Shown one piece after another: positions 1 to 6,000 of a stretch of DNA of 64,000 bases (positions within the stretch are counted from its first letter, which is position 1; every line of letters starts with the position of its first letter). This DNA comes from Escherichia coli. GTDB taxonomy: Bacteria; Pseudomonadota; Gammaproteobacteria; Enterobacterales; Enterobacteriaceae. The position numbers were made by a program. The stretch is from NCBI RefSeq assembly GCF_009931435.1, contig NZ_CP043415.1. One strand, 5' to 3'.

Positions 1-3000
1 GTGGATAAGTCGTCCGGTGAGCTGGTGACACTGACACCAAACAATAACAACACCGTACAACCTGTGGCGCTGATGCGTCTGGGCGTCTTTGTACCGACCC
101 TTAAGTCACTGAAGAACAGTAAAAAAAATACACTGTCACGCACCGATGCCACGGAAGAACTGACGCGTCTTTCTCTGGCCCGTGCAGAAGGATTCGATAA
201 GGTTGAGATCACCGGCCCCCGGCTGGATATGGATAACGATTTCAAGACCTGGGTGGGGATCATTCATTCCTTTGCCCGCCATAACGTGATTGGTGACAAA
301 GTTGAACTGCCTTTTGTTGAGTTTGCAAAACTGTGTGGTATACCTTCAAGCCAGTCATCCCGCAGGCTGCGTGAGCGCATCAGCCCTTCCCTGAAGCGCA
401 TTGCCGGTACCGTGATCTCGTTTTCCCGTACCGATGAGAAGCACACCCGGGAATACATCACCCATCTGGTACAGTCAGCCTACTACGATACTGAACGGGA
501 TATTGTTCAGTTACAGGCTGATCCCCGCCTGTTTGAACTGTACCAGTTTGACAGAAAGGTCCTTCTTCAGCTTAAGGCGATTAATGCCCTGAAGCGACGG
601 GAGTCCGCCCAGGCACTCTACACCTTTATAGAGAGCCTGCCCCGGGATCCGGCACCGATATCGCTGGCGCGGCTGCGTGCACGCCTCAATCTGAAGTCTC
701 CTGTATTTTCCCAGAACCAGACGGTCAGACGGGCAATGGAGCAGCTGCGCGAGATTGGATATCTTGATTACACGGAGATCCAGCGGGGGCGGACAAAACT
801 CTTCTGCATTCACTACCGGCGTCCCCGGTTAAAAGCACCGAATGATGAGAGTAAGGAAAATCCGTTGCCACCTTCACCTGCGGAAAAAGTCAGTCCGGAG
901 ATGGCGGAGAAACTTGCCCTGCTTGAAAAACTGGGCATCACGCTGGATGACCTGGAAAAACTCTTCAAATCCCGCTGAACATAAACTGTAGTCAGTGAAG
1001 AGCGCTCCTTTACTGACTACAGCTTATATTAACCGGTGCAGTGAGTGGTCTGCTCACTGCAGTTTATATTCTGTTTCCTGCAGTGCTGCCTGTGGCTGAG
1101 CTGCCATCTGCCTGTCCCTTACGTAAGTGATCCCGTAACCTGCTGCTGAGGCATTGCTCCCTTCATAAAACATGACTTACTCACTACAGCTTATATACAT
1201 GCTCCAGCTTATGTTATGTCTGTTCTGCTGACCACAGCTTATATAAGGAAGCGCGTATGCCGTCACCTCAGGGGAGGCAGTGTACGCAGGATCTCCGCAG
1301 CATCCCGCCCGTCACCTGTGAAAGGCACTGCCAGCGTGGCAGCCATATCCAGTGCAAACACTCTGGTATAAACCTCCATCGAACGTGGATCCCTGTGACC
1401 AGCCAGTGCCTGGATGACTTTCCGGGGCTGGCGGTGATAGAGCATGTGCATGATATAGCTGTGCCGGAAGGTGTGTGGTGTGACCGGAATCGAAAAGTGT
1501 ACCCCGTCAGCTTCGGCCCGTCTGACAGCCTGCTTCAGCCAGTTGCGCATGGTTTCGTCGGTCACGGCCCATAATGGTTCACGACGACGGGGCCGGGTGG
1601 TGATCATCCAGCTTTCCATCTGCCTGACATAGCTTATATCTGTCAGCGGAACCAGGCGCACTTCATCTTTTGGCGGGCGCCCGCGTCGCGCACGCACTTT
1701 TTCGGACAGGATCCGCACAAACGGTCTTACTCCATCCAGGTCAAATGATTCCGGTGTCAGCATCCGGGCTTCGCCAATACGCATTCCGGTATTCCAGAGG
1801 GTGGCGAACAGCATATGGTGACGCTGATCCGGCATATAGAAAAGAAGGGCACTCACTTCCGGGGCCAGCAGGTAGGCCGGTGTGGCCCCTGTGGAAGTGG
1901 CCATTCTTCTCAGGGAGAGCGCTGTTGCAAAATCCACCCCCGGCGCAATGGGTAACAGGGAGACGCGTTCTGGTGAATTCTGCAGGGGAATGACATTGTT
2001 CATGAGTTATTTTTCACGTAGCACACGCACTGTTTATGGATACAGGTATTCTGACCTGAACGCCCGGATCCTTCCACGACAATAAATCGCAGCGCGCGGA
2101 TCCTTTTGTTTGCTTATCACGCATTATTGCGGGTAAAACCAAATACGTAAAGGTACGTTTTGCAGCAGGGATCCCGTCTTAAGCCAGTCGTGGCGCGGGC
2201 TGAGGGCTGGTTTGCCGTTTTTGGGAGAATTGGGGTAATGCCAGGATGAATGGGATCGGAGAAAACAGAGAAAGAGAACAGAAAGGGAGAAGGTGCACCA
2301 CGTGTATTCTGGCCCGGGACGTCACCGTCCCCCTGACAGTTTGACTTTACACAGGAAGGTTGCAGACTCAGCATAATGACTGATTTATATGCAATCCTGC
2401 CCATGATTAATATAAATCATAATAATGATTATGCAGAAAATCACTTTCGATAAGATTTATATAATTACTACATTTCCATATAACATTTTCCGCATAAAAT
2501 AAGAAAACATATGTAACTAAAATGTATCAAGGCTGAGATATGATATTAGTGCCTTATTCATTGCCTGATATCCTCTTTCCGTAACCTGCATGTACATGAA
2601 TCTTACTCATGATTGCGACTCTCTTATTTATCCTAAGTCCTGTCCCCTCTGAACTGGCATTTCCTGCGCTCAACTGATATCAAAAGAGGGTTAGCAGGCC
2701 CCGACATCAAAGCACTGATGTTATTTAATGTCGGGAGTAATATTTTATTTAATATCAGTTAGTGTCTCCGGTACCACTTCCCTGACACGTTATATCTTCA
2801 GATTTCCCCGGAAACAGGAGGTGACGAACAACAGCCTCATCCACACATAAATTAGAGCCAGCTAGCGCCAGCGTATGCCCGTCACCGTTAATAGTCAGTA
2901 ACGGAGCTGAAAATTTATCTGCCATTTTACGGGCATTTATCCAGGGAGTTGTCGGATCATATTTGTGTGCCACAAACAGTAAACCGGATGGTAAAACAGT

Positions 3001-6000
3001 ATTCTTCAGGCGTGTCTGTTGCAGATCGCGATGAATTGGCCATAATTCACAAAATTCAGGCAAATCGGACTGTTCCCTCTCAAAATTAACGGCCGGAAAT
3101 GCGTCAGCAAGGGCTTTTTTTCGCGATTTTCGTTGTTCCTGTGATAATTGTTCATCACTCTGATCAACACATAATATTACACCCAGAGCATCACTGACTT
3201 TTTCCGATGCTATGGAAGAATTAAGTGCAGTTTCAATTTCATTGCTGACAATACCCTGAGAGAACTGACGTACGGCCGTTGCAAGTGTTGGCCATGATGA
3301 GCGCCATAACAGAAGCTCTGTCGTTAATGATATGAGATCATCTGAAGATATACTTTCCCCCCTGCTGTCTGTTAAAGGAGAATTATGTAATTTTAATAAA
3401 AGCTGATGGAACTGATGTATTGCCTGATTCCTGTCTGAAGAAAGTGGACAACTTTTTGTCCTGGCACACCATGCAGCAAAACGATCAAACGTTTCCTGAT
3501 AACTGTGGGCCTGCCTGAGTTTCCATGAAAAATTATCATTTAAATCATCAATATCAACGACACCGTCAAAAACTATAGATCTGATACTGGATGGAAAGCG
3601 TTCAGCATATAAGGCTGCAATCTGTGTACCGTATGAATATGCTACAGCTGTCAGTTGTTTATCTCCCAGAGCTTGTCTGATGCGTTCAATATCATATACA
3701 GCCTCATGAGATCCAATATGGCGAATGACTTCAGCTCCTGTATTATGGATACAGGCATTAATTTTCTGTAAAATTAGTTGCTTTTCGCTTACATTCACCG
3801 ATCTTTCTTGATTGGGTTGCTGGCAATTTATGGCAGGAAAGGACTGACCGACACCTCGTGGATCAAAACCGATAATGTCCCATGATTCCCGAAGATTTGT
3901 GACCGGCCAGTCAAAACTGATATAAGGATTAATTCCGGGTAATCCAGGTCCGCCACTTATTATAATAATACTCCCTTTACGTTTACTTTTTGCCGGCAAC
4001 TTTGTCATCGCCAGTCTGACAAGTGGTATATTTTCATCTGACACATCCTCACCTGTGTCGGTATATTTTAGCGGTACAGATAGATATCCGCATAACAACT
4101 CAGGTGAAGAGCTTTCTGTACCAAACCAGTCACTGTATGGGCTGGTCATACAGGATTGCCACTCGATCTGTCTGGCAGACACAGTTCCGCAAAGAAAAAC
4201 AGAAAAGATAAAGAATACTAAAGTCCTTCTTAAAGACTTCATTATCACACGCATTGCATCTCCTGCATTGGTAAATTATTACCCTGACCAACAGACAGAA
4301 TCCCCGGCGGTATAATTCTCACCGGGGATGATGACAGTTAAAGTTGTTAAAACGTGTACTTCAGACCGGCCGTCGTAATGAAGTTGTAATTTTCAATTCC
4401 AGCCCCGTTATTATTATGCTCTGAAGTATTATCACTACGGTCGTAAAGAGATGTATCCCCTTTTTTATTTGTGAGACGACTCCATACACCCTCGATGTAC
4501 ACTTTTGCCTCTGGGGTGATATAGTAACCGGCATTAACTGCAACAGAATAGTAATTCTGGTTTTTTACTTTGCTTCGGAATGTAGTTTGTCTTACATAAT
4601 GCTCATCATTATCAGATCCCCTGACCCACCCGCTGTATTTAAATGCACCACCAAACTCAAAATTATCGTAACGGTAGTTTCCTGTCAGACCGACATAAGG
4701 AATTTTAAAATGTTGTTTATAACCAATCACTTTTATTTTATCAGGTAACGCTCCCGTTTCATTCCGGAAACCACCATTCTCACTGTAAATATAAGTTCCT
4801 CCTGTAGCATTAAAACTGTAACGGCTTTCCTGATAACCTGCCATAATAGCAAGGCGATAATCAGATTCTTTTAAAAACCAGCCTTTAACGTTCAAATCAA
4901 ATTCGTTGGCATAATTAAGACGTGTATCAGGATGCCTGCTTTCATCTGTCCATGTTCCGGGAGTCCCGGAATCCATCCAGTCCTGATCAACCATATCCCC
5001 CCCCCGACTATTGAGTGTGCTCCAGCCAGCTGCACCAACAGATAACCATGGATTCAGCTCCCAGTTAACGGCGCCTTTAAGAATGGCGGCGTTACTGTAT
5101 TTCCAGTCCAGTTGGCTGACTTTACGTCCACCTTCTTCAGGCTCATAAACCCGTTCTTTTGTTTTGCCACTCAGTGTACCTAAATTAATCTCTGTACTTA
5201 TTTTCTCCGGGCCGAAGAAATCAGAAGCAGAAGCTTCCTGAGAACTGAATACCACAGGTGCTGCAAGCATAATTGCCAGAAGCTTAGTTTGCATAACAAT
5301 GACCCCCTTCTGTCACTTCTACATATGTATATGATTCTTTTGATGTACACCGGTAAGTCAATTATCAGTACTTAATTTGTTTAGCTTTTGTTTAACCTAA
5401 TTGTTTGTTTTTGTGATGTATATCAAAAAGATATGAATGCGCTGTTAGTTATAGTGCAATTGTAACATTCATTGTCCTCATATTATCTAAAAACATCTTA
5501 GCATTATCTGTTTATTTTCAGTAATCACTGATTCTCAATATTGACTAAATAATTATTTTAAGGAGTTAATAGAATGAAAATAATATTGTATGCTATCCTC
5601 CTGTATTTCCGCCAGAAAATCATTTAGCTACCGAGAGCCATCATAACCCGCTATGAAAATGGAGAAAAATGTGGTGTCATCTGACGCTGTGAATGGAAAT
5701 ATTATATACTTATCTCTGGTTTAATATGCCAGGCATATTAAAACTCAATATAAAAAGATATCATCCATCCTTCAGAAGGATATCGCGACTTTCTCGAGCA
5801 GACAAGAAAAATAATATTTATCTTAATGACTTATAAAATAAGTGCGACTGGATTATTATTTTTAACATTATTTTCTCTTAATAAATTAAAAATGGATTCT
5901 CACATTATTATATACTGAATACATTGTCTGTGAGATAAACAATTCAGGTGACGTCACCTGCAGCAGCATTGCTTCATAAGAGTTCTTCGGCACCAGAAAT

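Follow-up and report, generated by a model that had tools for sequence, protein, structure and literature searches.

A conserved two-gene cassette of an omptin and a putatively exported Hip1-like hydrolase in Escherichia coli plasmids, prophages and chromosomes

We analysed a 64,000-nucleotide stretch (the window) of Escherichia coli contig NZ_CP043415.1 (assembly GCF_009931435.1), which carries beside a RepFIB replicon two co-oriented genes, one coding for the omptin OmpP (4347..5294, 315 aa) and the other for an uncharacterised member of a known enzyme family, an alpha/beta-hydrolase of 499 aa (2755..4254). As judged by sequence comparison, the two constitute a mobile two-gene cassette, conserved as one unit even where the copies have diverged, and the hydrolase falls within the tripeptidyl-aminopeptidase (TAP)/Hip1 branch of MEROPS family S33, with a complete Ser207-Asp433-His460 triad. 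The original prediction, made from the sequence of the window, had described a secreted hydrolase immediately upstream of ompP and beside RepFIB, and suggested that the two might act together in peptide processing. Both open reading frames (ORFs) lie where it placed them, 92 nt apart and in the same orientation, and the RepFIB RepA gene (1..978) does lie alongside, but the hydrolase is upstream of ompP only in plus-strand coordinates; because both genes are on the minus strand, ompP (5294 to 4347) is the 5′ gene and the hydrolase gene (4254 to 2755) the 3′ gene. The pair was already known at the level of annotation from the F plasmid, and its recognition as a cassette is a modest new lead. Coordinates are collected in Table 1.

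Comparison by megablast found the 3.3-kb segment in 198 E. coli and Shigella plasmids (155 at >=80% coverage), in which the Prokaryotic Genome Annotation Pipeline (PGAP) labels the two genes 'alpha/beta hydrolase' and 'ompP'. The F plasmid (NC_002483, 32322-34861) has the same ompP, hydrolase, int and RepFIB genes in the same order with the same neighbours, and the cassette is >=99% identical in F′ and Hfr laboratory strains; nothing of substance distinguishes the two, the window presenting the same backbone segment on a pVir-like plasmid, followed by IS66 elements. More distantly, an omptin gene followed by a hydrolase gene in the same order and orientation is present in six diverged lineages, with hydrolases that are 76-100% identical. 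On the E. coli chromosome a 76%-identical hydrolase gene is situated directly downstream of ompT (nfrA-ybcH-envY-ompT-hydrolase), in O157:H7 Sakai the pair (ECs_1663/ECs_1662) is at the right end of the lambda-like prophage Sp8 (locus record L027, 19644-22268), and in a verotoxigenic E. coli (VTEC) strain it adjoins minCDE. Eleven of 13 matching temperate phage records, including 2G7b, ev243, PhiR29_1 and Turner, contain the pair in the lambdoid b-region, between int and the tail-fibre genes, and ColV-like plasmids have it beside iroN. Three more diverged variants are represented by the P0002, P0003 and P0005 types; the P0006-type hydrolase was left out of the comparison of omptin neighbours, its contigs ending ~200 nt upstream of the gene. 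The chromosomal and prophage pair (Sakai Sp8 and phages 2G7b, ev243 and PhiR29_1) shares with the F-type pair the gene order, PhoP box, −35 element, both hairpins, catalytic triad and cysteines, and differs from it in sequence (omptin 70% and hydrolase 76% identical), in the spacer between the genes (186 nt vs 92 nt), and in lying within a lambdoid b-region rather than beside a plasmid replicon. A match to the ompT locus was found in 3114 of the 5426 complete E. coli genomes; the chromosomal pair is present in 1221 of the 5426 and the F-type pair in 85.

Omptin and hydrolase have diverged together, in that their pairwise identities across seven cassette copies correlate with r = 0.93, a value that rests on non-independent pairs and whose p-value is nominal. 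The hydrolase gene has a dN/dS of 0.12-0.16 relative to the diverged copies (dS 0.8-1.2), which indicates a functional gene under purifying selection rather than a decaying passenger. These sequence comparisons support the view that the association is no accident of this plasmid. A scan of genome contigs with the hydrolase as query yielded three contigs only, all from metagenome-assembled genomes (MAGs), 2.4-3.6 kb in length and 75% identical; their bins, Collinsella, Haemophilus and Lachnospiraceae, are implausible, and we suspect the contigs to be mis-binned E. coli DNA.

In the window the pair is flanked on one side by the RepFIB RepA gene and a tyrosine recombinase gene (1263..2003) and on the other by IS66 elements. 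The G+C content is 31-45% over ~2000-6250 and 52-58% in the neighbouring RepFIB repA/recombinase and IS66 regions, a contrast with both flanks that suggests acquired DNA. The 750-nt spacer between the hydrolase and recombinase genes (2004-2754) holds a minus-strand ORF of 95 aa (2117-2404) with no Pfam match; plasmid annotations list no gene there, and the stretch is probably filler without coding function. The ompP promoter region is preceded directly by an IS66-family patchwork (6240-9294) whose ORFs include two of 393 and 123 aa that resemble one split transposase, a TnpB-like ORF of 115 aa and two that are accessory-like; at this place related plasmids carry heptosyltransferase and autotransporter genes.

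Databases refer to the hydrolase as 'alpha/beta hydrolase' or by automatic labels only, and PHROGs lists both cassette proteins as being of unknown function. The assignment of the hydrolase to family S33 made in the original prediction stood up to profile searches and structure prediction, and can be refined to the Hip1/TAP-like group. Pfam Abhydrolase_1 matches residues 96-462 (3.7e-35, 122 bits, cutoff 25.8) and Abhydrolase_4, the TAP-like C-terminal domain, matches residues 391-483 (2.9e-14, 53.5 bits, cutoff 21). The best solved relative in a PDB sequence search is Mycobacterium tuberculosis Hip1 (Rv2224c, CaeA; PDB 5UGQ, 7SFM, 8E5W), at E 9e-51 over residues 28-480, followed by weaker matches to TnmK1/K2 (~1e-14 and 8e-9) and a marginal one to prolyl aminopeptidase. 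An AlphaFold model built with 41 homologs (pLDDT 87.7, pTM 0.87) places helices over ~235-415, predicted to form a helical lid inserted in the core as in Hip1, and the six best Foldseek matches to this model are all Hip1 (E 1e-31 to 2e-29, TM 0.76-0.83; top match 0.78/0.83). The resemblance to Hip1 thus includes full-length homology at ~27% identity, the same predicted fold and lid, an equivalent Ser-Asp-His triad within D-P-x-T-P and H-T motifs, and the cysteine pattern. Experiments have established Hip1 as a serine protease, with tripeptide-pNA and ester substrates cleaved as well, and it is 30-38% identical to the tripeptidyl peptidases of Streptomyces lividans (PMC4022732). The latter (Tap, SlpD and SlpE, or TPP A/B/C; MEROPS S33.002) belong with Hip1 to the TAP/Hip1 cluster of S33 as defined in PMC11878206 (see also PMC4022732), and on this published grouping and their architecture they may be likened to the E. 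coli protein, sharing its Abhydrolase_1 and Abhydrolase_4 domains and, by prediction, its export.

The triad is intact in alignment. Ser207 is present in 40 of the 41 homologs, Y208 and G209 are invariant, as are D433, T436, H460 and T461, and the A-Y-S-Y-G, D-P-T-T-P and G-D-G-H-T motifs together with ten mature cysteines are kept in all seven cassette hydrolases. The nucleophile elbow had been read as G-Y-S-Y-G, which is the actinobacterial Hip1 form; residue 205 is in fact alanine (GCA, 3640-3642), giving A-Y-S-Y-G. Alanine is usual at this position in the proteobacterial clade, nearly all members of which have A-Y-S-Y-G, and occurs in some Nocardia sequences, whereas the actinobacterial Hip1-like sequences have glycine. 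Because a small residue is kept here, the protein is likely to be an active hydrolase. Prolyl aminopeptidases (S33.001; PDB 1QTR, 1AZW) share the alpha/beta-hydrolase core, the S33 clan and weak similarity around the nucleophile, but their fold matches the query at TM 0.34-0.37 and they are cytoplasmic proteins of ~310 aa that lack the TAP-like C-terminal domain and the disulfides. The NCBIfam prolyl aminopeptidase model TIGR01249 reaches 33.5 bits (cutoff 259.75) and covers residues 160-286 only, and we do not consider the hydrolase a member.

The hydrolase presumably is a Sec-exported, disulfide-bonded serine hydrolase of the periplasm. Its N-terminus has the features of the signal peptide already proposed for it, with basic residues K6, R9 and R10, a hydrophobic core at 11-24 (Kyte-Doolittle up to 3.0) and a small-x-small cleavage site, V-S-A|R-Q; the (T/A)VSA|(Q/R) motif is kept in 7/7 cassette copies, and from about residue 28-31 onwards the protein is homologous to Hip1 and modelled with high confidence. 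The predicted mature form has ~471 aa, a mass of 52 kDa and a pI of 5.4. It contains ten cysteines (35, 55, 144, 168, 263, 269, 362, 402, 470 and 490), each invariant or >=90% conserved, nine of which align with cysteines of Hip1, a protein with 11 cysteines and five predicted disulfides (PMC4022732). A pattern so like that of Hip1 would fit an oxidising, extracytoplasmic compartment. Hip1 is likewise exported and is associated with the envelope, although that envelope is mycobacterial and the E. coli protein would reside in the periplasm of a Gram-negative host, where Hip1's substrate GroEL2 has no obvious counterpart. The earlier description of the hydrolase as 'surface or secreted' holds as far as export is concerned: Sec-dependent passage to the periplasm is all that the sequence supports, and a surface location or secretion goes further than the evidence. 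A lipoprotein signal was considered and rejected, as the candidate L-C-G lacks a small residue at −1; since only the F-type copy has Cys22, the other six cassette copies lacking it but conserving VSA|Q/R, a lipoprotein is unlikely. RefSeq starts the F plasmid protein at Met5 (495 aa). We prefer Met1, at 4254, because the Shine-Dalgarno region and the ATGCG of the start are conserved there: AGGAG is located 5 nt before the ATG in the window, and a purine-rich stretch (AGAG/GGAG) followed by ATGCG is kept in all four aligned variants.

By every test run, the 315-aa protein is an omptin, as had been proposed. It matches Pfam Omptin PF01278 (8e-122, 406 bits, cutoff 22.6) and NCBIfam NF008222 (614 bits, cutoff 537), is 70% identical to chromosomal OmpT, and PGAP names identical plasmid copies OmpP. 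The catalytic pairs V-D103-Q-D105-W and N-D230-E-H232 (precursor numbering) align identically with those of OmpT, which we take to be D83/D85 and D210/H212 of the mature protein.

The signals around the two genes were compared in four aligned cassette variants. Upstream of ompP is a PhoP-box-like direct repeat, TAAACA-N5-TAAACA, both half-sites of which are kept in all four, and a sigma-70 promoter-like sequence (TTGACT-16-AAGAAT) in which the −35 ATTGACT is invariant. A preprint (10.1101/2020.02.28.965145) describes PhoP-dependent expression of an ompP-GFP fusion and a PhoP site that is conserved. Starting 18 nt after the ompP stop codon is a G+C-rich hairpin with a 10-bp stem and a 10-nt loop, directly after which comes a U-rich tail, UCUGUCUGUU (4290-4299). 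Both the minimum free energy (MFE) and the centroid structures contain the stem, the 95-nt spacer folds with z = -2.6, and the CCCCGG/CCGGGG core is kept in the four variants with single mismatches in two. A terminator scan made no call on it, its loop being longer than 8 nt and its U-tract weak, and an Rfam search of the spacers gave no match at E <= 1. A strong hairpin (z = -4.5, with none of 200 shuffled sequences folding as well) follows 19 nt beyond the stop codon of the hydrolase gene and closes the cassette on its 3′ side. A hairpin is found at this position in all four variants with different arm sequences; that of the chromosomal copy, with a stem of 14 bp, is called as a terminator by the scan.

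The spacer between the genes is 92 nt long in the F-type and P0003-type cassettes, 128 nt in the P0002-type and 184-188 nt in the others. A promoter scan of the coding strand from the ompP stop to the hydrolase start found no sigma-70-like site in either the 92-nt or the 186-nt spacer, and the best candidate found by eye in the long spacer (CTTACC-17-TATATT, 8/12) is too weak to call. Compared with locus records L002 (5815-6000) and L015 (5813-6000), the F-type spacer (4255-4346) lacks ~95 nt of AT-rich sequence found in the long spacers of the chromosomal/phage, ColV-like and P0005-type cassettes, such that any hydrolase-specific promoter located there would be missing from the F-type copy. 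In a uropathogenic E. coli (UPEC) isolate a gene 186 bp downstream of ompT was described as 'ymcE' (PMC6854850); as this is the length of the ompT-hydrolase spacer, that gene may be the hydrolase. Transcript data are available for the prophage copy: at entry of O157 Sakai to stationary phase, ECs1662 changed by log2 -2.53 and ompT by -2.72, within the same expression cluster (PMC2241611). We identify ECs1662 as the hydrolase gene, and its ~6-fold fall shows it to be transcribed. Overall, the layout of signals appears to fit a two-gene unit with a leaky internal terminator.

The explanation that we favour as a whole, with moderate confidence, is a mobile cargo cassette of ~2.7 kb that extends from the PhoP box to the 3′ hairpin and combines an omptin with an exported Hip1-like hydrolase. 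It would consist, in order, of a PhoP box and sigma-70 promoter, ompP, the G+C-rich hairpin, the Shine-Dalgarno sequence, the hydrolase gene and the 3′ hairpin. Because the F-type spacer is 92 nt long and has no recognisable promoter, the hydrolase of this copy would be expressed mainly through read-through of the leaky hairpin by transcripts from the PhoPQ-activated ompP promoter. The mature 52-kDa enzyme would fold in the periplasm with five DsbA-dependent disulfides and, by analogy with Hip1, may cleave peptides and esters as well. In the most speculative step, it would complement the omptin by breaking down, in the periplasm, peptides that the omptin has cleaved at the surface, for example pieces of cationic antimicrobial peptides; that the hydrolase degrades omptin-cut peptides in this way is a tentative idea, about which we have more doubt than confidence. 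Joint processing of peptides in a broader sense is plausible, as suggested by the linkage, the co-divergence and the layout of signals. Broader still, and rather unlikely in our estimation, is a two-tier envelope proteolysis module under PhoPQ control that has been spread by lambdoid phages and F-/ColV-type plasmids, in which host cationic peptides or proteins would be cut by the omptin at the surface, and a periplasmic S33 peptidase would either destroy the fragments that pass through or, like Hip1 in M. tuberculosis, process a protein of the envelope or of the host. Were this so, decades of work on OmpT in K-12 and BL21, both of which are without the second gene, would have missed half of a system that is present in enterohaemorrhagic E. 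coli (EHEC), necrotoxigenic E. coli (NTEC) and many commensals.

Several observations weigh against joint function, and a number of them would suit linkage by descent only, in which the two genes were captured together once in phage or plasmid cargo and the hydrolase has its own promoter and an unrelated job, such as the scavenging of peptides or esters in the gut; we view this as a possibility to be taken seriously, if not a probable one. At the level of expression, the hairpin between the genes may terminate most ompP transcripts, and its conservation and G+C-richness, together with the weak U-tract, make co-transcription uncertain. The long AT-rich spacer of most variants (184-188 nt in three of the four aligned) leaves room for a hydrolase promoter, and the expression cluster shared by ompT and ECs1662 (QT1) is weak evidence of co-regulation because it is very large. 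The genes are also found apart. K-12 and CFT073 keep ompT without the hydrolase gene, the homology stopping 4 nt after the ompT stop in K-12-type sequences (L002 query position 1119) and ~25-30 nt before the hydrolase ATG in CFT073-type sequences (query positions 1271-1276), and ~60% of the genomes that match the ompT locus are without the pair; the hydrolase has thus been lost repeatedly where ompT was kept, and since genomes of these types have ompT only, OmpT must work without it. Conversely, a full-length hydrolase lies next to a broken omptin gene in pVir68 (NC_012944; locus record L026, 2633-3394), where the omptin is truncated to a 253-aa ORF, and in pQ501 (locus record L013, 6118-7067), where it is annotated as frameshifted, sequencing error being possible in both. 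In Salmonella, Serratia and Budvicia, the homologs that are 44-55% identical are situated alone, with no omptin beside them, in unrelated contexts that are often rich in transposons or insertion sequences (IS). Only in the Escherichia clade is the gene linked to an omptin, a linkage not shared with Hip1. Lastly, a literature search returned no study of the E. coli hydrolase, nor enzymatic, localisation or phenotype data for any proteobacterial member. The lack of the hydrolase in K-12 and CFT073 and of an omptin beside the homologs of 55% identity or less are what hold joint action at the level of the plausible.

Other features weigh against descent alone. The genes have stayed adjacent, in the same order and orientation and without exchange of partners, through a dS of ~1 in six lineages and in five or more different genomic contexts; the sole recognisable promoter and the PhoP box are 5′ of the omptin gene and the strong hairpin is 3′ of the hydrolase gene; and the F-type and P0003-type cassettes have lost the long spacer, yet their hydrolase gene is intact.

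The hydrolase could also be something other than a peptidase, namely an exported esterase, lipase or lactonase that acts on lipids or small molecules, possibly those of the envelope or host, although we think this decidedly improbable. An A-x-S-x-G elbow occurs in some lipases, and automatic annotation names the phage copy 'putative lactone hydrolase' and homologs 'pimeloyl-ACP methyl ester carboxylesterase' (JGI). The next structural neighbours after Hip1, TnmK1/K2, are non-peptidase enzymes, which also counts against a peptide-cleaving partner for the omptin, and Hip1 itself is deposited as 'Carboxylesterase A' and hydrolyses p-nitrophenyl butyrate (PMC4022732). However, Hip1 and the tripeptidyl peptidases of S. 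lividans, by far the nearest of the characterised relatives, are proteases, the TnmK matches are far weaker than that to Hip1 (~1e-14 and 8e-9 vs 1e-50), and the TAP-like C-terminal domain is present.

A role of the pair, or of the hydrolase alone, in phage or plasmid conflict (superinfection exclusion or anti-phage defence) is very improbable: in temperate lambdoid phages the cassette does occupy a region that often carries such cargo, flanked by int/attP and the tail-fibre genes, it also occurs on conjugative plasmids, and the hydrolase matches PADLOC PDLC01094 ('C3a206 TAP-like protein', 3.9e-55), but this sole PADLOC match, to a candidate CRISPR accessory cluster of three members beside type III-D CRISPR loci in Nocardiopsis (PMC6546367), is rejected as family homology only, there is no CRISPR locus or cas gene here and no PADLOC match for the omptin, and an exported disulfide-bonded enzyme is unlikely as a sensor or effector of intracellular phage infection.

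Few bacterial surface proteases have been studied as thoroughly as the OmpT-type omptins, whose part in antimicrobial peptide resistance is established; in M. tuberculosis, Hip1 has been validated both as an immune-evasion protease and as a drug target. A Hip1-like, predicted exported hydrolase is tied to an omptin gene in O157:H7, on plasmids of necrotoxigenic E. coli and on the F plasmid, and is absent from K-12. Should this enzyme prove active and work together with the omptin, something is missing from current accounts of how omptins defend pathogenic E. coli; should it not cooperate, the pair is one more block of phage or plasmid cargo.

Table 1. Positions in the window of the omptin-hydrolase cassette, its predicted signals and other plasmid genes.
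Feature	Position	Strand	Basis
Hip1/TAP-like, putatively exported alpha/beta serine hydrolase gene	2755..4254	-	Pfam, PDB sequence search, AlphaFold, dN/dS
Predicted signal peptide of hydrolase, residues 1-28, cleavage VSA|RQ	4171..4254	-	Sequence features
Nucleophile Ser207 codon, in A205-Y-S207-Y-G209	3634..3636	-	Aligns with Hip1 Ser228
Acid Asp433 codon, in Y-D-P-T-T-P	2956..2958	-	Aligns with Hip1 Asp463
Base His460 codon, in G-D-G-H-T	2875..2877	-	Aligns with Hip1 His490
Terminator-like strong hairpin, 19 nt after hydrolase stop, 3′ end of cassette	2699..2736	-	RNA fold
Shine-Dalgarno AGGAG, 5 nt before hydrolase ATG	4260..4264	-	Direct reading of sequence
G+C-rich hairpin, 10-bp stem, 10-nt loop, 18 nt after ompP stop	4300..4329	-	RNA fold
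ompP, omptin outer-membrane protease, 315 aa	4347..5294	-	Pfam, NCBIfam, catalytic pairs
Sigma-70 promoter-like TTGACT-16-AAGAAT for ompP	5334..5361	-	Consensus match only
PhoP-box-like direct repeat TAAACA-N5-TAAACA upstream of ompP	5378..5394	-	Exact pattern match
F17-type fimbrial genes (F17-G lectin adhesin, usher, chaperone)	9539-13870	-	
TibC-like heptosyltransferase and AIDA-type autotransporter	19867-26050	+	
CNF-type toxin, 1014 aa	47128-50172	+	
CdtA/CdtB-like genes	53877-55498	+	

The remainder of the window is that of a pVir-like virulence plasmid, in which the cassette is part of a necrotoxigenic E. coli plasmid backbone common to F, and includes fimbrial, autotransporter and toxin genes (Table 1). 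A second exact PhoP-box-like TAAACA-N5-TAAACA repeat is present at 14833-14849 on the minus strand, upstream of and on the same strand as the F17 fimbrial genes that end at 13870.

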